From NCBI RefSeq assembly GCF_002105155.1, contig NW_019029011.1, positions 186,001-250,000 of the forward strand: DNA of 64,000 bases. Reading direction: 5' to 3'. Under the pieces are notes generated by a model that was not told where the DNA came from, made no database searches, and saw only the letters and a list, made by a program, of their open reading frames with translations. The position numbers and the translations under genes are program-made. Below, in pieces: positions 32,901-53,858 of the stretch; positions within the stretch are counted from its first letter, which is position 1, and every line of letters begins with the position of its first letter. Origin of the DNA: Lobosporangium transversale (lineage: Eukaryota).

Positions 32901-33842
32901 AAATCGCCTTTAGTCAAGATTTCATTCGCTTCAGCTTCGAGGTTTCTCCAGTTCTCAGCCTCTCTTAGTGAAGCGTGTGTGGCCTCCATACGAGTTTTGA
33001 CCAAATCCAGGTACTTGAGCCGATCCAAGGACTGAGCCGTTTCAGATGAATCGACCAAGTTGATATCGCTTCTGACGAGCTGAATCCCTTCCTGCAATGT
33101 TTTTGTCTCTTGTCGTAATTGGTCGAGTTCATGGATGAGACGCGGAAGGGTCTTAACCATCTCTTGTGTTGTGACAGAAAGAGCAGTAGAAGTCTGATTA
33201 GCGAGAAGGTGGAGTTTTGTAAGGTAATTCGTGGCATGCTGAGTCAAGAATGCGTTATGGCTTTTGAATGCCGCTGTATTGGCCTTTTGCTGCTGTTGGC
33301 TCTCAGATGTCGAAAGAATAGTAGTGGATACGGAAGGAGATTGCAATAACGCGTCTTGATCAGCTTGGTTTTGGCCATCATCTAGTAAAGCAGACCAATC
33401 AACCCATACCATCCAATAATTATATATTTGCAGTATATTTATTGGGTGAATGATTCAATGTACAAAGAGACTCAAGGGCTCGAGTTGTCCTCTCCGGCTT
33501 ACCAAGTACAGGGTCGAGTGCTGGGGTTTGCAAGAGGTCTAAGGATGCATCTAGCGAGACATCTGAATCATTTAGCGTATTTAACGAGACCGATGGTTTT
33601 ATTGCACCACTTGCGTTTGCATTAGTGCTCGTTTGTGGCAACGATGAAGCGTGTGCTGAAATACTATTGACAGTTGTTGCAGTTGAAGAAGGTCTAGATA
33701 AGGTCACGTCAAGGACAGAATTAATCCATGTCTTGACATCAAAGTCAGGCGCAATGAATACTGGATCGATGGTTAGTCCCTGTCCCTGCGAGGGAGTGCT
33801 CGACAGCTGGCTGGGGGCTATCGGCCGTGCTGGAGGGGGCAT
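29990..33842 (-). CDS. COG7: Conserved oligomeric Golgi complex subunit 7, 2 exons
   Basis: FIAPDFDVKTWINSVL, YLTKLHL...KTLPRL, LDLVKTRME...LREAENW, CIRLTHGF, GAKQLEIDLTYF; intron ~33382-33501. Confidence 0.85.
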
Positions 33843-34031
33843 CTAGGTTGCAGTACAAGTGAGGAAGAAGAAGGATGGTGATGAGAAAAAGAAACACATT
33901 TTTCCATCATCCATCCATTAACCTTCCCATGAGGTTGGGCAACATGAAAAAGCCACAATCGTGCCTGGAAAAAAGTGCCTGTTGCCTCAAGCTGATCTTA
34001 TTCATGTCTTCCATTCTCGCTCTTGCTGGTC

Positions 34032-35084
34032 ATGCTATCATCAGTCGTCCTTGCTGCCACTGTAACCGCCACTGTCGCATTGCCTGTGCTTGTTAGCTCA
34101 ATTATTCGTCGTCGCAGGATTATAGAGAGAATTTCTCTCATTCCGCATGACAAAGAACGCGTTGTGATCATCGGGGCAAGCTCAGGGATTGGATTAGAGT
34201 TAGCGAGGATCTATGCACATCGTCATGCACATCTCGTTATCGTTGCTCGTAGAGAGGAGCTTCTAGAACAGTTGGTGCAAGAATTAGGTACCATTGCAGG
34301 ATCAATACACGCTGTACAAGGGGATATCACTGCACCTGAGGATGTCCGTAGAATTACGATTGAGTCTTTAGGCGCGTTGCGTGGGGGCATAGATACATTA
34401 ATTATTTGTGCAGGAGTAATCTCAGTGCTGCCTTTCGAGGAGCTGGCGGGAATCAACTGTACAACTGCAAACAGAACCTTGAGCTCTGACAATGCCGAAT
34501 ACACACATCTGATACCCGCCAACCCTCAAGCGGCGTTGGAAGCATCTATTAAGATTATGAATGTCAACTATCATGCACCTCTCAATCTGACTAGCCACTT
34601 TCTCCCTGCATTAATACAAACCAGTTCTGCCGGGAATATTATTGTGGTTTCATCCATGGCTGGCAAGATTGGAGCACCCACACGCTCCATCTACTGCGCC
34701 AGCAAGCATGCAGCGCAGGGATTTTTTGACGCATTGGGAATGGAAGTTGAACGAACAGGGGTACATGTTGGAATCGTGTCTCCGGGCACTGTAGATACTG
34801 ATCTCCGTCAATCTGCTGTAGATTTGCCTAAATCAGAGGCATATGACTTGTCATCATCTTCATCAGCTCAAGCCAATACTTCCAGATCTGAGCTCAAGAG
34901 GATTGCAGGCACGAAAAAGGGTGCGATGACAGCGCATGCGTGTGCAGAGGGGATTGTTCGTGCATCGGATTATCGACAGCATGATGCAGTTATGCCATGG
35001 TTCTACCAAATGAGCCTAATACTCAATCTAATCAGCCCTCCGTTAGTTCGATGGCTGGCCAAGAAGAAGTATGGTTATCTGTAA
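34032..35084 (+). CDS. Short-chain dehydrogenase/reductase (DHRS7B-like) with N-terminal membrane anchor
   Basis: IIGASSGIG Rossmann motif, catalytic SS...YCASK, SPGTVDT. Confidence 0.9.
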   Translation: MLSSVVLAATVTATVALPVLVSSIIRRRRIIERISLIPHDKERVVIIGASSGIGLELARIYAHRHAHLVIVARREELLEQLVQELGTIAGSIHAVQGDITAPEDVRRITIESLGALRGGIDTLIICAGVISVLPFEELAGINCTTANRTLSSDNAEYTHLIPANPQAALEASIKIMNVNYHAPLNLTSHFLPALIQTSSAGNIIVVSSMAGKIGAPTRSIYCASKHAAQGFFDALGMEVERTGVHVGIVSPGTVDTDLRQSAVDLPKSEAYDLSSSSSAQANTSRSELKRIAGTKKGAMTAHACAEGIVRASDYRQHDAVMPWFYQMSLILNLISPPLVRWLAKKKYGYL

Positions 35085-35279
35085 AATAGTGTCATGCTTT
35101 CATTAAAATAAACCGTTCAACATTATGGAGAAGAATCAATGTCATACTTACGACATGTGTGCAGTACGATCTTGACCCAAAGCAAAGAGAGTCGGCTAGT
35201 TTGTTCAGGTGCTTGAACATCCCTTGCTGTCATTATATGGATTACGTTCCTCAGATCTGCCAGCGAGTCTTGCATATCC

Positions 35280-37808
35280 TTCAATATACACTCTCTTTTT
35301 TGCCTGCTGTACTGTTGCATGCTATACAGCACAACCCCTCCCACAGGGCCATAATTTCCTCTTCAAACGCTCGGGCGGTGGCCTCTTCTCGCTCTCTCTT
35401 CTTTTCTTCCCTCTCTTTAGCTCTCATCCCATTCAGTTGGTGCGGTAAAGCTGGCGAAATAATACTCACAAGAGAGGGTCATACGCCGAACTTTACGTGC
35501 TTGTGCTGTTTAATACGCAAAGGGGTAGTACCATATTGAGCATCGAAGTCGTCGTAGACCCTTGTCGCCAAATACATGTGCTTGCAAGGGGTCTTTTGTC
35601 GGATATAGTCAGGGTATGAATATGACTGAAGATCCCTCTCTACGTCGCACTCTACTCCGGATTCTGTAAACGACTTTATCACGAACCGTAAGAAATGAAA
35701 GAACGATTAGAACCCATCCATATACAATCAAACTTGTGAAATTGTCGATCATCGACAGATACCTCTCTCGCGACCAACTTCTCAAATATTATAACCCTTA
35801 CGTCCGCGAAACTCACTGACATCGCCGCTCGACAGCCTTTCTTAGTTGTACTGTGAGTGCGTTACAGAATGTATTCCATACTCAACCTTGAATTACCATC
35901 CCGACCAATGACCCATTGCAATATGTAGATTAAGAAAGTCATTCGTAAACCGCGCTTCCTTAGCGCATGTGCCTTTAAAACTTTGAACCAAGAGTCCATA
36001 AGGTTGTTTGTCTACATGCTGGTAGACCTATTAAATGAATTAGAATGACGGATATTGCGTTTCATTGTGTCAGTCGTTTAATACCGTTTACCGCTCTTTT
36101 AGCTACCTCTTTCACATAAAGCACTCATCTTGATCTCCCCCCTTTCGCGATCTAGTTCCCTTCCATATATAGGGAAGACTTCGGTCCTGAGATCATTAGA
36201 GTTATAGAACTGGTTTTTGATCCTATTCTACACACCATCTGCTCTTTTGTCAGACCCTGCAATACGCATCTCTTTAAGCAAAGCCTTGAACTACTCTCAG
36301 TTTCGCTCCTAAGAGATATAGAGACGCGTTAAAACATTGTTGCCAAGGTATCTTGATACAATATCAACATGATATATCTTATCCTGAATTTATTCCTGAA
36401 TGCCATCACTCTGTGTCATGGACTGATCCATGAACTTTGATATCTTGGGGTCGCACTCGGTTCTGAACCACGAGAACCATCCCTCTAATGTAGTGGTATC
36501 TTCACACCGCTGCTAAACCATGCCTAAACTTACAATGACTAGCTGTAGAGGATATAGGCAACTGGCATGACATTTCGAAATTCGACTCTTCACAAAGTAG
36601 GTAGACTGAAGGGTCACTATTCTTTTTCCTCCTGCCTTTTTCATTCCGCAAGGGCCTAGCGACCCTCCATGTTGGAGTCCATGCAGGCTATCAAACTGCT
36701 ATCCTCCATAACTTGTTGAAGATTACAATGAGGACAATAAATAAAGTAAACACCAGGAGGATTATACAGTGAATCTGAGCGATTCTTACCTTCAAATGAA
36801 AGTTTGTCCATCAAGCAATCAGCTAGCTTTGCGGGTGGTTGACACCAATGTCATTAGCAAACTATCCTTTGCCTCTATTTGCTTGAATCCCCTTCATCCA
36901 TTCGTCTACACTAGTGACAACATTGTCGCCTCCAGTGAGCTCCTACATTTGTTTGCGATAGACGTCTCTACGTACATCATTGTAAGTAATAAGTAGGCTT
37001 GGAAGAATACTTTCTTCCCTTCTTCAAGTTTTAAATCATGGAATGTTAACCTTGACCTATGTAAGCGCAACAACATCCAATACATATTAGTACGATCATT
37101 ACCGACTGTAGATTTTCTTTGATTTACATTTTCCCTTATATATTTCCAGTCATAGCCGCTGGAGACAATTGACCTCATCCAGTTGCACCCGTCAGGGCCT
37201 ATGGAAGAGCGGCTCTGGACTTGTTAAAGCTTCATGGTTGTAGTGTTTTTAATATTCCGTCGTAGCCCAATCTCCTTCAAGGGGTTTTTGGATTCTGATA
37301 TATACCGGGTATTTGTTACCAGTTGAATTCCAGTGAATGACCAGCTTTTTTCTCGAACTTGGGCGCAGAAGTACTTGGTTGACCAATCGAATTACTTGGG
37401 CAGCCGCAGCCAGGATAAACCTTGTTGTGAGTAGAAAGCCTTTTATCCAGATTCTCTTAGTGGCCAAGAAAGAATCCAAAATCCTTGTTCGACCACTCTG
37501 ATTCTTAATCCACAATCCTTTCTTGGCTCCAAAATGCTCGGAACGCATTGAATGAGGAAAACGTAGTAAAAGGATCGGATACCTCTTGGTTAAAATAGGG
37601 ATTCACTGATTCATGTGTATTAAAATTTGGAGAATATGGCAAGATACACATTCCACAATGCGCACAAATCACGAAGCTGATATCGACCAATAAAATCAAC
37701 CCTATACTCCTTTATGCAAACGTCCAACAAACATGGATCCCATACATCCCATCTTTTGAATAAATAGTTCTCTGTGGGCTTACATCTTATTCTTACTGCT
37801 TCATCCAT
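35280..37808 (-). mobile_element. Decayed Mutator/MULE transposase pseudogene
   Basis: Minus-strand fragments in the expected order: N-terminal finger-like YPVYIRIQK...HYNH (~37300), IACMDS (~36680, first DDE Asp), KFMD (~36430), TNNLMDSWFKVLK (~35990, E-motif region), SWIM-like YPDY...PCKHMY (~35580). Many stops and frameshifts. Confidence 0.75.
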
Positions 37809-38116
37809 CTTATTGTCTGATAGAAACTTTCAATCGTCAAGGGATACATGTTGAACACTCGTGAGCAGAGCAGAAGAGAAAGAGGGATAAGCAACGATCT
37901 ACTGGCATATTTTGCGGCCTCTAGCGTACCACTGGCACCATTGATCCGATCGGTTCACATCAGTGGGAAAAAAAAGAACGTGAAAACCGCTACGTATAGG
38001 GCTCTTATTTCTTTTTTCTGTTTAACCCTACGCCAATTTCTTTTATTCACTTTTCCTTCCCTTAATAGTCCCATTGATATTTCACATTACATCCTTACCC
38101 ATACTACCTTTTAGTA

Positions 38117-40061
38117 ATGGGAATCGAGAGCCCTCGGTCTCCTCTTCTAAAGAAGGGCTACGAGACGACTCTTCACTACTACGCATCAGCCTGCTCGATC
38201 TTTAACCCTTCCAACTCCTTGAGCCACAGTACCTATACCAGACTCGATATCCCGGGAACCTTACTCCAATCATTCCCTAGATACAGCCCACAAGATCCTG
38301 GAAAGAGGGCTGGGAGGTATAGAACGCCTGGGAACCTTGCCCACTATCTCGGTGGCGACCTCTGTGAGGGAAAAAGGCTTACTCATATACACTGAGAGAA
38401 GGTGCGAGCCAAGGCATTGATAGACGCTTAAGAAGGGCTCGACGAGCCAGATTGACGCGTGGGAAGCAAGCGTCGGATCTGAAAGAAACAATTCTTGACC
38501 ATTACAAAGGCATTATAGGTAAAGCCTTTCACTGATCGAAGGAAGCATGAGATTTGTTCGCGAAGCACCTGTGGAGCAAGAACTGACTTACTCAAGAATG
38601 TTAATTCCAAGTAAACGTCGCTATTGTGACTGGTTGCCAGCTCGAAGTTATTGTGCCTCGAGACAGTGATTCTGGTGTATAAGCTTACAAATGTACTTGC
38701 CACCCTGAGCATTACACGGGTTCAGCTAACAGTACTGTGCATAGTGAGCAACTGGCAGCCCGACTTGGAAACATCCCTAACTACGAAATTGCCAGGAAGA
38801 AGGATGGATAAATTAATGGCATACTATAAAAAAAAGTCTAAAAGTTTGGATATCATATTAAAGTCCCTCTTTTTTAAAAAAAGAAAAAAAATACCCCAAG
38901 AGCATTGTATAAGACCCTTGTGAGACAATGAAGTGAAGAGAAACAGAGTAGCTGACAGGCACTTTGAAGACACTATACGGATTTCCGTGGATCAACAGCA
39001 AAGCAAATGCCTGTCAGCTTCACTTCAGACTCCTGTACTTGGTTTGAATAGAAGGTGGCGTGGTAATGTACTAGCTCTTTATCCCTTTTCCCCTGCATTT
39101 CCGTTGTTCTAGCCCACTTTTGCAACCTTTACATGGACATTGCATTCCAGAAGAACAAGTGCTCAGATACGTTCAATACCTTTCGCTCTATCGGTCGAGT
39201 TCCTTTCTAATAGCCTCCTTCTGCCGCAGGAACGAAGTATAAGTGTCGAGAGCGGTATTCATTCAAGACTCCCGAAAACTCGAGCATGCTCCTCCAGAGG
39301 TCAAAAAGCAATACAGTAGAAAGAGCAAAAAACAACTCTAACGCAGATGCTCTTGATGCTAGCGAGCAAAAGAAGCAGAAGGAAAAGGCGACAAAGCCAC
39401 GAAAAACGGTGGACGAAATGGATAAAAATGGCTTGACCAGGGCTATGCAGTATGAACACCGAACTAGGTTCTTGATATCGGAACTGTCAATGGTAACTTG
39501 AGTAGAATACTGAATGATAAGCCAAGGTTAAGACCTGCCTCCAAGAAGTCATTTGCCACGCTTCGAAGAACAAGCGTGCTTGCCAGAGAGTTATTGACCA
39601 GTACATTGAATAGCTTTCAGCTACCTCATCTGAACGGTAGATATATATTAGCACTCCGACCGATATCCATACTTTATTTTTTCTTTCAGGCCTAATCCCT
39701 TAGCTACATAGTTGTCAGTGTGAATGAATAATATTCCTCCAAGAAGTACACGAGCTGCCAAGGAATTGTGGGACAGGTTAATATCCGCTAGCTTTATTGC
39801 TCCAAATGCAACGCATTTATGCATAGAGATGTGATAACCAGCTACAACATAGCCAACATCGTCCGTGGCTATCTGCTCTACCAACAGCGACCCCCATATT
39901 TTCAGCCGATAGACAAGGATGGAAATTATTCTTGGATGGATGACAGCCGTTCAGTGTACACCAAACATCAAGCACTATTCAAGGCAGAGGGCCAAGAAGC
40001 AAGAAAAAAGCGTGTCAGCAGACACGCTAGACTAGTTTGGAGTCAACGATCTTTCCACTGA
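38117..40061 (+). pseudogene. Second PIN(XPG)-Fanzor gene, heavily decayed and internally deleted
   Basis: MGIES..LLKKGY, RLDIPGT, YLGGDLCEGK and VLATLSITRVQLTVLCIVS (PIN remnants); YEHRTRFL-DIGTV; one frame from 39711 reads VVSVNE*YSSKKYTSC...LYCSKCNAFMHRDVITSYNIANIV (RuvC-II, Zn finger, RuvC-III). Confidence 0.8.
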
Positions 40062-40770
40062 GAGTGGGTTGTGCTGTACTCAGCGTCATCACTGCCTGTT
40101 TCACACCCCGCGCCCCACGGTTCCAACAATGTTACCATGGCCATCAGCCCACTTCCCACTATTTACTACATCTGGGGTATGCCAGCATTGACACTTTTAA
40201 GCCATTGTCATTGATATTGGATGGTCGCTTATGCTTATCACATTATGTGGGCTCTTGGCAATAGGAATATCTTACATGAAGCCTACCCGTGGTTTCTCTG
40301 CTGAAATGAACGCCTCTATCACGATTTAGTTTGCTCTAAGCTGTCTCTTCCTGTCTCCTCGACCTATTGCATCTTATGCGCTGATATTATTATTTACTTG
40401 CTCCCTGGAAGGGACTCATGTCCATGAGCTCGCAATTCATTCTTGCCCCCCGCTGCTCCTGGGTTGCTACCTTGCTTCCTACCACTGTTGTTTCTGGCTC
40501 TTTAACTTAAATTGTACAAAAAGCCTTTCAAAAAAAAAAAAAAAATGGAAAATTTAGGGGTAGGTATGATAGGAGATTTCGAGTCGTTTTGGTGGGTTGT
40601 GAAGCCAGTCACTTCTAGCTACAGATAGATGAAATAACTCTAACACAATAAAAGAACAGCACACTACTCAAAGACTGAACAAGAACAGTCAGTACTCAAA
40701 TGGCTTTTGTGTAAAAGAAGGACAAGGAGCCAAGCTGTTGCTCGTTAAATAGTTAGTGGCGAACCCTCTC

Positions 40771-40817
40771 CACGTGACTAAAAACTAAAACAACGTCTGT
40801 TTGCCTATACTCACGTG
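40771..40817. promoter_or_regulatory. Paired CACGTG E-boxes (Cbf1-like TCACGTG) upstream of the 14-3-3 gene
   Basis: CACGTGAC at 40771 and TCACGTGA at 40811. Confidence 0.45.
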
Positions 40818-40973
40818 ATGCTGACCCCCCAAGTGACCCATTTCTTTTTTCTGTTCCTTGGGGCCTTTTTTTTTTTTTTTTTTCTCAACAATCGAACTCC
40901 ACATTCATATCCCTTCTTCAACCTCACCCTTTTTCTTTACAGCTATTTTTCATCTCTTCAAAAAATATCCACA

Positions 40974-42811
40974 ATGACAGAGCTTACCCGTGATAACCAT
41001 GTCTACCTCGCCAAGCTCGCAGAGCAGGCAGAACGCTATGAAGGTAATAATACAAAAGGCATTTTTTGTTTCTTACTCTTTTTTCTCACACGCATTGTTT
41101 CGTACAATCAAGAGCCTCACTGGGACATTTAAAAGCAATGCGACAACGACAATTCCAACTTGGTTCACCGCATTAGACCATGATTAAGATCGCTAGCAAG
41201 GAATCGCTTAATCATGTCTTGTCGCTCCAACAAAAAAAAAAGTGCGCGAGAGATGATTAGGTGAGAGTGAATGGCGACTTCGAACCACACCAAATGAGAG
41301 AGGATATATCCTTTGTCATCAAGTAGAAAGCCATTTTATTTTATTATTACTATTTTTTTTATTTTATAAGCTATATGGGTTGTCATCTACAAGTCTGTAA
41401 AGATAAGCAGAATGCTCAATGGCGCGGGTGATTACATCTTGCCAGAGAGGTTATTCTTCTCGTGTGGGTTATGTGTGTTTATGTTATGAGTCTATTTTCG
41501 TGATGAAGCGGTTTTTTTCTGGCAATCCTTGTCAGGTGTTACACTATCTCTTTCATAGACTATGCCTTTTTATAATTCAACTTCACGTCACATTTTCAGT
41601 GAAAGAGGTTAAGAACATGTGTGTGTTTTGATCCATTGCCGATAGAAAAAGATGGACAGGGCTCTTAGGTCTTTAATCAAGTAACAGGAAGATTGTATAT
41701 TTAAATATGTGTGTATCTGACCCGGGATCTCAAAATAAATTCCTTTGGTGTTGGCTCACGCTCTCGCTATGTCCTCCCCATAAGGAAGAGGGCCTCGTCG
41801 TGTTTTTGCAACAGACAAAAGCACGCACATGCATAAATTACACACACTCCACAGACATACATGCACAAACCATATCGTTCTCATTCGTCACCTTCATAAC
41901 AAATCGCAGTATTATTAAAAAAAAAGACTTTTGTGCTATGTCGCCATATTAACATGCTCATATCCCTGCTTGTTGGCCAATATAGAGATGGTCAAGAACA
42001 TGAAAGAGGTTGCTTTTGCTAACACGGAATTGTCAGTTGAGGAACGCAACTTGCTTTCTGTTGCCTACAAGAACGTGATTGGCGCTCGTCGTGCCTCCTG
42101 GCGTATTGTATCGTCGATTGAGCAAAAAGAGGAGTCCAAGGGCTCAGAGAGCAATGTTGCCATGATCAAGACTTACCGCGCCAAGATTGAGGAGGAACTC
42201 GCTGAGATTTGCAATGACATCCTTGATGTGTTGTCTAAGAACTTGATCCCTGCAGCTGTTTCAGGAGAGTCAAAGGTTTTCTACCATAAGATGATGGGTG
42301 ATTATCACCGTTACTTGGCCGAATTCGCCACTGGCGACAAACGCAAGGAGGCTTCTGACAAGTCTTTAGAGGCATACAAGGCAGCTGGTGAGGTTGCCAT
42401 CACTGAGCTCCCTCCTACCCATCCTATTCGCCTTGGTTTGGCACTCAATTTCTCTGTATTCTACTACGAGATTTTGAACTCTCCTGATCGCGCTTGTCAC
42501 TTGGCTAAGCAAGCCTTCGATGATGCTATTGCCGAGTTGGATACCCTCAGCGAGGAGAGCTACAAGGATTCAACTTTGATCATGCAACTTTTGAGAGACA
42601 ACTTGACTCTTTGGACTTCGGATATGCAAGAAGGTACGTCAAATCGCCAATAATCCTTATTTTTTTATGCATTTCTAGAATTCTGACCTAATCTTTTATT
42701 TCTTCCGTGTGCTCAACACCACTTCTGGGATTATATCGACATTACTCAATCACAACAGCCAACTCTAACCAGCCTGAGGGCACCGAGGCTGCTCCTGAAC
42801 CAGAAGCCTAA
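40974..42811 (+). CDS. BMH1: 14-3-3 protein, 3 exons
   Basis: [57 protein letters not shown]. Exons 40974-41043, 41986-42633, 42759-42811. Confidence 0.97.
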
Positions 42812-42910
42812 GTTCATTCGCCTTTTCTCATTTCCAAGCTTGAATCCATATCATTTGTCCAGATCAAACACCTAGCTAATAAAAGAAATAAAAAAATCGC
42901 TCCTCCTTAA

Positions 42911-43720
42911 TCATGGCGAGTAGCTATATATATAAAATTGACAATCGCTACCTCCCTGGATCAAGTAATGTTTCAATTCAGGTATCTCCCAACGCATCGA
43001 TAGAACAACCTTATGCTGGAGTTCGATAGCTTCGAGTAACAGTGGTGTTAACTTGGATAAGGCATCAGGAAGCAGATAGACAAAAAGATGTGAGCACTGC
43101 TCTATCAATCTTTTCATTGTTTGAGGTGCTTTAGAATTGGGCTCGGTGGGCATAACAGGAGAAAGAAGATCATCCTTCGTTGTCAGATCGCCATGATAAA
43201 GCTCTAGCCTAGAAAGAATATCATGCATTTCGGTCTTGGACTTGGGGTCTGTTTTTGTCTGTGCCTGGAGAAAGATCCTGTCCTTTGCTGCCTCCAGAAG
43301 TGGTTTATCCAGGTCGATACCAATGGCTCGTTTGAGCTGAGTTGAAGGAAAGGTTTGAAGGGCCTGGACCAGCACGATCCCATCGCCACAGCCAAGATCA
43401 AGGAGAGAGTCCCTGTTAGGAGTTGAAAAATGGACATGCTGCAACATATCGCTAAGAATGCCCTGTGGAGTTGGACGAAATGGAGAGATAAATCCACTTG
43501 CCCTAATCGAAAAAAGCAATTAGGAAATGGTAGACAAATAGGATAAAATACACGAGCATTTATTTATCAATTCTTACCAGTTGTATGAGAAAAGTCGAGT
43601 CGCCTTGGGCTTTACTTGGGCAAGCAAATCAGGATTGTTCTTGTAGCGATCATGTTCTTGCTCTTCAAAATCTGAACCTTTGTATGAATTTTTTGAAATC
43701 TGCTCAACCTCGTCTTCCAT
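42911..43720 (-). CDS. Class I SAM-dependent methyltransferase, 2 exons
   Basis: SPFRPTP, motif I LLDLGCGDG, AIGIDLD, LFVYLLP. These resemble FAM173-type protein lysine methyltransferases. Confidence 0.8.
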
Positions 43721-44046
43721 TTATACATTCAATCTTGATTTAAATGGTAAATACAGAAATGCAGAAATAAATGTGTGATGGAACACAATGTTAATGTCAA
43801 TTCAAGAATTTTCGAATTCCAGAATTCTTGGGCAAACAGAATATGATGACCTTCGCCTTCATGAGACATTATCATGACTACTCAATGAGAAAACAAAGTT
43901 GTCCACATAAGCCATTACTCGCAAGTACATTTATTCTATCCTCATCTACTCGGAAAAACCATGTCCATCCAATATTAACCCATACATCTATGATCTTGGA
44001 GGAGGTTATTCCGTCCCAATATGATAATGATTATAAATATTTTACA

Positions 44047-51300: not shown

Positions 51301-53858
51301 CTAGAATACTGATTCTGATTCCTTAAAAGGATCTGCGCCCAAGACACAAGACATGGGCGGCCGCCTCAATCCGCTGTCATTGCTGCTAGTGCCATTTTCA
51401 AGCATCTCGGTCGAGCTCTCATTGAGCAAGTCTCTTTTAACCTCATCGGGATCAATTTCATATTTTGACAGCAGCTCTTGCAATAATGACAGTTGCTCTG
51501 ACTTTGCTTGATAAGACTCAGGGCCTTGTGGGATGACAGGAACTCTATCAAAGACACGGCGCGCGCGGTCATAAAAAAAATCTGGTCGAGGTTTGTATTC
51601 GGCATTAGCCATAATAGACTCAATACTGCCGTAGTATTGGATCAATTTCACAGCCCTATTCGGTCCGATCCCCTCTATTGTCTGATAGGACAGGAGTCAA
51701 AAAAAAAAAAAAGATTATTATTAGATTATGTCAGATATTATACACTTTTCTAAATATACTCGACTTACACCTGAGAAATCGGTGCCGCATAGAATGCACA
51801 AGTCCCGGAATGCATCACGATTAATCCCAAGGCTCTCATGCGCAACACGTGGATTGATTTCAATGATATCTTTAGCACTACCAGGAGCGACCTGTCGTAA
51901 CAAGATTCCATTGCCAAAGACCGCTGTGTCAGTATCCTCACTGACTGAAGCATCTGCCCAGCCTTGAGTGGTCAACTGTGCGCAGATAGCTTCGGCCTCT
52001 GCTCCCTCAGCCTGGATTACTGGTTGGCCCATTGCTTGTAGTAACAACTGGCAGGACGCTACCAATGGCCATGTAACGCGCAAAGTGCGGCGCTCAAGTG
52101 TCATGAACAGTGTTTGATGGGATGAGAGGACCTCTTTAATCGTAGACGGTAGATCTTGTCGAGTCTCACTCAATGTCTCGTCCACTTTCGTAGTGTCCTC
52201 TAAGTCATCAGTCTCGCATAGCATCCCTGTTGGTTCACTCGGCCATACTGCTTGCTCATCGGCAGTCAAGTTTTCCATGAGTGGCTCCCCTATAATAGGC
52301 TCTAGGTCACTAGTCAAAGATTCCTTCCCATCAAGCCGCTCAATATCCCCTTCAAAGAGATTTGCCCTATCCGATCTACTGCTTTCTTCCTGCAGTGTCC
52401 CCGATGATATAAGTCTCGATTTTGAATCCGGTAGAAGACTTGTGGATCCGTCTTCATTTTTCACTGATTTATCCATGATCAATGGGATTTGTGAAATAGG
52501 TGGATCTGTCTTTCTTTTATCTTGGAATAGAAGCGCTTCCTTGATATCTTTCACCAGCTTATGTTCCAATTCATCTAAAGCTTTCTGTCTTTTTGTCGAG
52601 TACTGAACTAACTCCTCTGTGCTTGATATGTTAAGACTACTCTCCATATTTTCTACATACTTTAGTAGACCTTCATGGATTTTCTTGTGAATTTCAGCCT
52701 CTGAGAGAGGGCCAAAGAGGTCGGCGAAATCAAAAATCTCTTTCACGCTGAGCTGACTTATCGGAGGTAATTCTTCTATTGGTGCTTGGGTTGGCACTAA
52801 AGGCTGTGGGCCACCAGCATCCCGTGTGTCCTGAGCGGTGTTGTTGTCTTCGTTGCTGGTGTCCGCTAGATCATGCATCACATCCAAGCCTCGTGTTGTC
52901 TCAAAATTTAGCTCTAACTGCCCTAACGTATCCAAATCAGACGCGAAGGAATCAGTCTGATCATTTTCGTGTTCTGTAATACTGTCGCCCAAAATTATTG
53001 CGTCATGGGCAAGTAACCCTTCAAAATGAGCCAGATGCGAATCAAGTTTACGTAGGTCTTCTTCTGTGAACTCAGGTATATGCCATGAGGGATCATTCTC
53101 AAGATTTTCGCTATGAACATTGAAAATATCAGGGAGAGAGCTTGGGTTGGACAATGTGGATTGAGATTGAGCAGGCAGTAGGCCGTATTCCCTCAAAGCT
53201 TCGTTGGAATTTTTTGCCATGGCCAAGGGTGGTATCGGTAGTGATAATATGACTTCTTCTAACGGTAGTTGCCTCATAACTTCCTTCTGGTTATATTGAT
53301 TTTCGTGGAGAGGAGTCTTTTGTGGCTTTAACCCTTGAAGGATCGATGACGCTCGCTCCGGAGTGATTGCTTGTAGAAGTTTTGCGGGGCCCTTGAGGCC
53401 CTTCAACCGCGATTTTCGGACCTTTTCGAGCTTGAAGGAACGTTCTACTTTTTGTTTCATCTGGGCTCGACGTTGAATCTCACGTTGTTTCTCTACAATG
53501 CGATCTGGACCATCAAAGACGAATATAGGCTTAATACCATGTATCTGAAGGTATACACAGAGCTTGTACACGCCGCGTTGCACGCGTGCTGGGTGTGGAT
53601 CTAATCCATAGACTGAGGGTGTAATGCAGGAATATTTACTCGTATAAATAAATATGATAGTAAAGTCTACCATTATCCTATTTATCCCCTAAAAAAGATA
53701 AAATAAGATAAAAAATAAAAAGCAATCCTACTAAAGCGGTTGAGGTAACAGCTGACGTCGACAGCAAGTGTTTTGCCTTTGTAGCGGGAGATGTGATATC
53801 TGCCGACAGAATGAGGCGCTAAACGTTCCAATAGTGCAGTCAGGCCCTTTACACCCAT
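51301..53858 (-). CDS. Host FEN1/XPG-family 5' nuclease with long N/I spacer, 3 exons
   Basis: MGVKGLTALL, LAVDVS, PIFVFDG, EAEAICA, SEDTDTAVFG, ILCGTDFSG|TIEGIGP. Confidence 0.88.

Follow-up and report, generated by a model that had tools for sequence, protein, structure and literature searches.

Two divergent gene remnants

The window analysed here is a stretch of 64,000 nucleotides of Lobosporangium transversale DNA (contig NW_019029011.1, positions 186,001 to 250,000), whose gene content is eukaryotic, with spliced genes for COG7, an SDR protein (33996-35084) and a 14-3-3 protein (ATG at 40974). Between the last two lies the remnant of a Mutator-like element (MULE) transposase gene on the minus strand, head to head with the plus-strand remnant of a PIN-Fanzor, a fusion gene in which an N-terminal EXO1/FEN1-like PIN domain precedes a Fanzor. 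A sequence-only reading of the window had proposed that the two form one composite autonomous element, in which the MULE is the vehicle of the PIN-Fanzor.

The MULE remnant (35240-37849) was borne out on the minus strand by a frameshift-aware alignment to the spliced transposase of L005, a metagenome contig that holds a related unit: residues 1-713 of 729 are covered at 34% identity, with a score of 628 against 46-60 for four shuffles, and tblastn pieces reach E values down to 6e-15. Pfam alone did not detect a MULE in the window. Large DNA insertions after residues 194, 272, 329, 463 and 555 coincide with five of the six L005 intron positions, and four splice donors resemble those of L005; a first intron that had been guessed for the window gene gave no open frame and was dropped. 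The N-terminus carries a Cys/His DNA-binding region and the C-terminal part a degraded SWIM domain and a coiled-coil tail, the first and second catalytic Asp being kept (CMDS, FM-D) and the catalytic Glu reading Asp (NNLMDSW). The start, previously placed near 37808, is more likely the ATG at 37849, as the 11 residues read from there agree with the N-terminus of the L005 protein. The intact transposase open reading frame of an autonomous MULE is missing from the window copy, which has 13 stops.

The PIN-Fanzor, whose assignment to the plus strand with an ATG at 38117 also held, begins with a decayed EXO1/FEN1-like PIN domain (38117-38800), 59% identical over 160 residues to P0002 of Lobosporangium transversale, the best match among its closest named relatives, which are Mortierellaceae proteins. 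Alignment and tblastn follow the gene through intron 1 and a decayed linker or REC-side region (38801-39610) up to residue 531 of the L005 protein, from which tblastn jumps to residue 1138 across an internal-deletion junction (39611-39674), where part of intron 4 is left and near which the acceptor ahead of the last exon is visible. This deletion of about 600 central residues (approximately 532-1137) removes the RuvC-I Asp. The Fanzor C-terminus (39675-40061), interrupted by 3 stops, matches the TNB domain PF07282 (E 2.2e-08) and is 56% identical to L005 residues 1138-1230, with the RuvC-II Glu beside the zinc finger (VNE), a degraded C4 zinc finger and the RuvC-III HRD. Relative to the open 1272-aa protein of L005, the window copy retains residues 1-531 and 1138-1250.

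The character of the fusion was drawn from its relatives, a profile search having returned 5 longer ones among 7994 candidates scored. In P0009, P0010 and P0013 (1129-1320 aa) the same N-terminal domain is joined to the RuvC region, and P0010 and P0013 extend through the zinc finger. The sequence profile of this domain matches XPG/Rad2, its structural model in P0003 (pLDDT 73) was matched by Foldseek to human EXO1 and FEN1 (E 5.6e-09 to 1e-07), and the acidic motifs RxD, YxD, EAD, DSD and NDY, which we take to be the metal sites of FEN1 and EXO1, have been retained by each of the 5 long relatives and by P0003. The relatives are thus predicted to possess a FEN-like PIN fold with a helical arch and an acidic active site, degraded in the window copy. 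On the Fanzor side, the RuvC residues D-E-D, with the Glu just upstream of the C4 zinc finger and then RD, are present in P0010, P0013 and L005, and the window copy keeps the Glu and the RD, RuvC-I being deleted. Of the Fanzor1 signatures given in the available part of PMC10711439, the DPG at RuvC-I is replaced by DLG or DAG in P0009, P0010, P0013 and L005, and the TDG motif of the WED domain is found in P0009, P0013 and L005, reads TNG in P0010 and is deleted in the window. The sole TnpB-family match of the profile in the PDB was the viral TnpB-like protein 9b0l (E 1.1e-04), and a phmmer search of the PDB with the RuvC-side exon of L005 gave no match. The window also contains a host-type gene of the XPG/Rad2 family (51724-53688, minus strand; PF00867, E 5.8e-16), which the transposon PIN queries did not detect.

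The head-to-head arrangement of the two remnants was confirmed, the window being collinear with both L005 genes. A spacer is indeed shared by the two divergent start codons; its length, first estimated at about 310 bp, had to be corrected to 267 bp (37850-38116) with the MULE start at 37849, as compared with 282 bp in L005. Because this length is conserved, the spacer may plausibly act as a bidirectional promoter shared by both genes, a putative function presumed from sequence; a pyrimidine-rich leader is clear only on its PIN side (0.74 vs 0.55). The similar decay noticed in the sequence-only reading stood up to counting, each gene having 13 stops and 10 frameshifts at codon level, over 686 aligned MULE codons and 570 Fanzor codons (Fisher test, p 0.69 and 0.82). 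Both genes in the window are dead.

Related units and loci

A check for other loci with the same divergent MULE and PIN-Fanzor pair found it on two metagenome contigs, L005 and L006, inside one unit bounded by terminal inverted repeats (TIRs). The alignment of L005:170-7629 with L006:218-7629 has 7463 columns and 99.3% identity; at either edge of this 7.46-kb unit the similarity of the contigs stops precisely at a 25-bp inverted repeat with 96% complementarity, beyond which the flanks differ. It holds the pair as in the window, the MULE on the minus strand and the PIN-Fanzor 282 bp away, and no inner ends were found between the two genes. The L005 MULE was modelled with 7 exons encoding 729 aa with the motifs CMDSTH, FMVDC, CxxH, NLAESWH and SWIM, and its single exons match PF10551 (E 3.4e-04) and PF04434 (E 0.01), both under the curated cut-offs. 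A DDE transposase with CxxH and zinc finger, enclosed by TIRs, places the unit among MULE/Mutator elements. The L005 PIN-Fanzor is open, with 5 exons encoding 1272 aa and the motifs GLDLGQ, VNEYYTSKKC and HRD.

The role of the MULE as vehicle of the PIN-Fanzor is therefore supported at the family level, one TIR pair enclosing both genes in L005 and L006. We consider it very probable that MULE and PIN-Fanzor make up a composite element, and likely that the L005/L006 transposase moves the whole unit. The two remnants in the window are in turn probably what is left of one such composite transposon of Mutator type with relatives like L005 and L006, a copy that is dead, has lost internal sequence and is eroded at its ends.

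Some features of these contigs were noted in passing. A second MULE family (40% to the L005 transposase) occupies L006:7630-9174, tail to tail with the Fanzor end, and its 3' end also sits in the left flank of L005 (L005:1-65). An in-frame 51-bp tandem repeat lies right after RuvC-I (L005:6380-6560), L005 having one copy more than L006.

A scan of metagenome contigs gave at least 13 PIN-Fanzor loci, of which 6 of 13 had less than 300 bp before the PIN match and were left out, and 7 had 430 bp or more ahead of the PIN start. MULE sequence lies upstream on the opposite strand in 4 of these 7, that is, in three of the six families (L005/L006, L004 and L011) among the loci listed. In L004 approximately residues 217-359 of the MULE lie upstream of the PIN, together with an out-of-order N-terminal piece; in L011 residues 573-729 abut the PIN start, and the left-end motif resembles the L005 TIR (1 of 500 shuffles as high). 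A second PIN-Fanzor is present in the window itself (7661 to about 11100, plus strand), a very divergent subfamily (24-28% to others) on a long branch in the tree, with an open 346-aa PIN exon, a RuvC-I reading CDPG and several frameshifts; a protein search with its PIN open reading frame found nothing among longer proteins.

Ends, sibling copies and neighbours

Flank comparison had been expected to yield the element ends and a target-site duplication (TSD) of 9-10 bp, and it delivered the ends, as the 25-bp TIRs of L005 and L006, and no TSD. In the window, where neither TIR nor TSD had been visible by eye, this still holds, the best inverted match (about 35167/40051) being equalled by 55 of 300 shuffles and dropped as a candidate for the ends. 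A direct repeat near 35184/40061, picked after looking, was likewise dropped (89 of 2000 shuffles), and a Helitron-like end at 35195 was abandoned once the TIR-bounded relatives appeared.

In some relatives the right end is predicted to be structured as RNA. The last 100 bases of L005 fold with a z of -6.7 into a short hairpin followed by a long stem with the TIR as 3' arm, the 5' arm pairing with the TIR through G-U wobbles; the right ends of L004 and L002 fold alike (z -4.0 and z -3.7), and in all three the structure is more stable on the Fanzor sense strand. The short hairpin is conserved in the window (40010-40027, plus strand), where it bears a compensatory change, and occurs in all five aligned 3' ends (window, L002, L004, L005 and L010), with 29 of 30 cells paired and 2 compensatory pairs, a modest signal that 24 of 500 shuffles reach, and it is a candidate for the first stem of an omegaRNA scaffold. 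No hairpin of this kind occurs in L003. The long terminal stem and TIR of the relatives are unrecognisable in the window copy, a 300-nt fold of its Fanzor tail is no better than shuffles (z -0.06), and an Rfam search gave zero matches.

Other copies in the window's own strain were followed in the contigs of run X1, which are possibly the source of the window and so not independent of it. Among the X1 matches listed, several other copies match from about 35190-35195, and right of about 39970 there is no further copy. One sibling shares about 37710-39625 with the window, including the MULE 5' end, the spacer and the PIN start, and continues with other sequence behind 39625; over spacer and PIN start it is 92-96% identical, with 18 differences in 219 over 37814-38032. 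In one further contig, at depth 88, the Fanzor tail follows immediately on a stretch of a related MULE that codes for SWIM, position 35589 being joined to 39876, as would be expected of an internal-deletion derivative. A decayed 1.2-kb block of the window (38231-39466) is identical to the sibling, at double depth, while its neighbours differ by 4-8%, and recent gene conversion, recent duplication or assembly collapse are possible causes. In run X5, taken by guess to be RNA and containing spliced host genes, a contig from a different copy matches 39368-39616 at depth 386 and extends into sequence deleted from the window, a hint that a fuller sibling Fanzor may be transcribed. X5 does not cover the window element and so offers no evidence on its expression.

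The two remnants had been thought to fill the whole gap between the SDR and 14-3-3 genes, and here the sequence-only reading failed, since a PHO4 fragment and a high-copy repeat occupy the last 900 bp. The former (about 40066-40505, plus strand) stems from the 3' part of a phosphate transporter gene of the PHO4 family, is decayed, and was recognised from translation and PF01384 (E 0.0048; E 0.026 and 0.22 in two frames). It adjoins the eroded right end of the element, beginning about 40 bases after the hairpin at 40010-40027, and probably lies outside the element. The 5' part of the PHO4 gene is absent on the other side; the gene was possibly destroyed by insertion and an adjacent deletion. 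The repeat (about 40580-40783, about 200 bp) is unrelated and unclassified and stands just upstream of the 14-3-3 gene; its summed X1 contig depth reaches about 4500 against 125, around 35 times single copy, with loose ends behind 40783. It was considered as a TIR and dropped, as it has no inverted copy at the left end. Among the runs compared, no related strain showed the SDR-14-3-3 interval without the element; run X7 covers 33000-44000 in scattered short pieces only, and 95 of the 108 differences listed are G>A, as from a converted (bisulfite-type) library.

Standing of the proposed composite element and a possible role for the fusion

Several observations weigh against a composite element, and many of them would agree with independent insertions, in which a MULE on its own and a PIN-Fanzor mobile in its own right came to lie head to head in a place rich in transposons. 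A MULE is lacking upstream of some PIN-Fanzors, in 3 of the 7 loci above (L002, L007 and L008, with 555, 1432 and 497 bp upstream of the PIN) and in the window at 7661, where a MULE is absent within 2.3 kb upstream. In a tree of 19 PIN domains, most deep branches of which are unresolved, those linked to a MULE stand scattered and not in one clade (3 changes, a number as low in 394 of 500 shuffles), a pattern that fits an old link with repeated transposase loss and repeated capture equally. The close X1 sibling includes the MULE start and not the MULE body, with the depth of a single copy in two MULE bins, and its extent would suit a composite that has undergone deletion as well as a Fanzor unit possessing a left end of its own; the joint from 35589 to 39876 was read without the lengths of its two sides. 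MULEs lie in other flanks of L005 and L006 too, nearness alone being therefore a weak argument, and shared ends are not found in the window, where no TIR or TSD is significant. L005 and L006, moreover, may belong to a single family of a single organism, so that the TIR-bounded evidence comes from one family, and their transposase, open through the DDE core, shows an apparent 2-base frameshift before SWIM in both. The word autonomous in the sequence-only reading thus suits the family, with this one apparent frameshift in its known transposase, and does not suit the dead window copy. Independent insertion nonetheless appears highly improbable to us, as a single TIR pair surrounds both genes in L005 and L006 with no inner ends found, spacer length, orientation and intron positions are shared by genes whose proteins are 34-38% identical, and decay is equal in both genes.

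The missing duplication touches the mode of movement. A composite may exist and yet not be moved by the canonical MULE cut-and-paste reaction that duplicates 8-11 bp, leaving 6 bp or no duplication; Fanzor elements of Mucor with odd TSDs of 6 bp or 11-12 bp are described in the available part of PMC3627910 (section 12). Also against the canonical reaction, no 8-11-bp TSD was found among the four L005/L006 flanks, and the only exact flank match of at least 6 bp is one of 6 bp between the two left flanks, in 1 of 6 pairings, a cross pairing that suggests inversion at one site or an assembly mis-join. Metagenome contigs spanning a repeated 7.4-kb unit can, however, join flanks of different copies, so that the absence of a TSD in L005 and L006 says little, and the transposase carries MULE motifs; movement of the composite by another route is in our judgement unlikely. 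To the counter-evidence belong also, as regards a guide role of the right end, the L010 right end (z 0.1 at the same length), the window's own 3' end (z -1.8) and the left end of L005, which forms hairpins as well, structure being hence not unique to the right end.

With the composite element as our preferred reading, the presence of the fusion gene in it can be considered. In the accessible text of PMC10530073 and PMC13565253 (section 6.2) the nuclease is described as cutting the vacated site, upon which repair restores the element, and the part of PMC10711439 available to us predicts that Fanzor1 reRNA scaffolds include TIR and TSD. By analogy with this Fanzor1 biology, a transcript through the right end would give rise to an omegaRNA with the element end as scaffold and flanking host DNA as guide, the RuvC domain would cut the site vacated by the element, and repair from the sister or homologous copy would restore it. 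The fused EXO1/FEN1-like domain may, in our own extension of that scheme, resect or trim the cut ends or the excision footprint, favouring homologous repair over end joining. We hold such re-homing plus resection to be about evenly balanced between right and wrong. More tentatively still, Mortierellaceae may harbour an autonomous Mutator family equipped with a cut-resect-copy-back module, in which a single polypeptide, a Fanzor nuclease fused to an active EXO1/FEN1-like one and guided by an RNA from the right TIR, would force excised copies to be restored by homology.

The PIN-Fanzor could instead be cargo of a composite MULE with another role and no re-homing, for instance in maturing its own omegaRNA, in the processing of transposition intermediates or as an RNA-guided binder. 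Its nuclease activity is predicted, PIN-like domains include RNases (PMC5499597, in the sections available), and excision by a DDE transposase already makes a break, which leaves the gain from an RNA-guided cutter unclear, as the consulted portion of PMC13565253 (section 6.2) has it. On the other side, P0010, P0013 and L005 keep all three RuvC acidic motifs, and the domain matches the DNA-processing EXO1/FEN1/XPG branch instead of the RNase PINs, on which grounds we rate the cargo explanation as rather unlikely, albeit the strongest competitor of the re-homing scheme.

Known systems are similar in part. As far as the accessible sections of PMC3627910 go, MuDR-type Fanzor1 elements of three Mucorales encode no transposase and have 9-bp TSDs; the elements described here share with them a Fanzor1 in a Mutator-type element of early-diverging fungi, and differ in that the TIRs of L005/L006 also enclose a transposase gene, arranged head to head with that of the Fanzor, that a 9-bp TSD was not seen and that the Fanzor has an N-terminal EXO1/FEN1-like domain. 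Autonomous partners of Fanzors named in the available text of PMC10530073 are Crypton and Mariner/Tc1. Compared with Fanzor1 as presented in the parts available of PMC10711439, PMC10530073, PMC10432273 and PMC13565253, the RuvC-II Glu by the C4 zinc finger, the HRD and a structured right end including the TIR (here predicted) are alike, while the length of about 1100-1300 aa with a 260-aa PIN domain and the DLG or DAG instead of DPG at RuvC-I are unlike. Mortierellaceae proteins of this kind are among the Fanzor HMM hits of Table S2 of PMC10711439, with 96 occurrences of "Mortierella", and one row of 1186 aa begins with the same N-terminal motif; in the portion of that supplement at hand the words XPG, PIN, MuDR and MULE do not occur.

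With MULE/Mutator elements, judging from the available sections of PMC6446971 and PMC5751038, the unit has in common a DDE transposase with SWIM, TIRs inside the reported 14-500 bp range and, like several MULE groups (PMC6446971), an extra open reading frame on the opposite strand; the extra frame being a Fanzor fusion and the lack here of an 8-11-bp TSD set it apart. Mortierellomycotina MULEs are noted in the same part of PMC5751038, and "Fanzor" has no occurrence in the portions of PMC6446971 and PMC5751038 available; nor do these, or the accessible text of PMC10432273 and PMC5499597, link Fanzor to a MULE transposase or a PIN domain. The EXO1/FEN1/XPG 5' nucleases are alike in predicted fold and acidic motifs and unlike in sequence (13-21% identity) and in the fusion to a transposon-borne Fanzor, the nuclease activity of the domain described here being putative. 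A full-text literature search, with Repbase, bioRxiv supplements and most subscription papers outside its reach, gave no description of the fusion or of a MuDR-Fanzor element bearing a transposase.

The link between MuDR elements and Fanzors has so far come from elements without transposase, in the text of PMC3627910 available, and L005 and L006 unite transposase, Fanzor, TIRs and a candidate guide scaffold. With one such defined unit, the role of a Fanzor in a cut-and-paste transposon, raised in the accessible part of PMC13565253 (section 6.2), becomes directly testable. The dead copy in the window is of interest solely as a sign of the age and wide distribution of the arrangement in Mortierellaceae. 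If true, the cut-resect-copy-back module would explain why cut-and-paste DDE transposons keep Fanzors and would amount to a natural fusion of an RNA-guided nuclease and an exonuclease; such a nuclease joined to an EXO1/FEN1-like domain would show how the outcome of repair can be steered after a guided cut.

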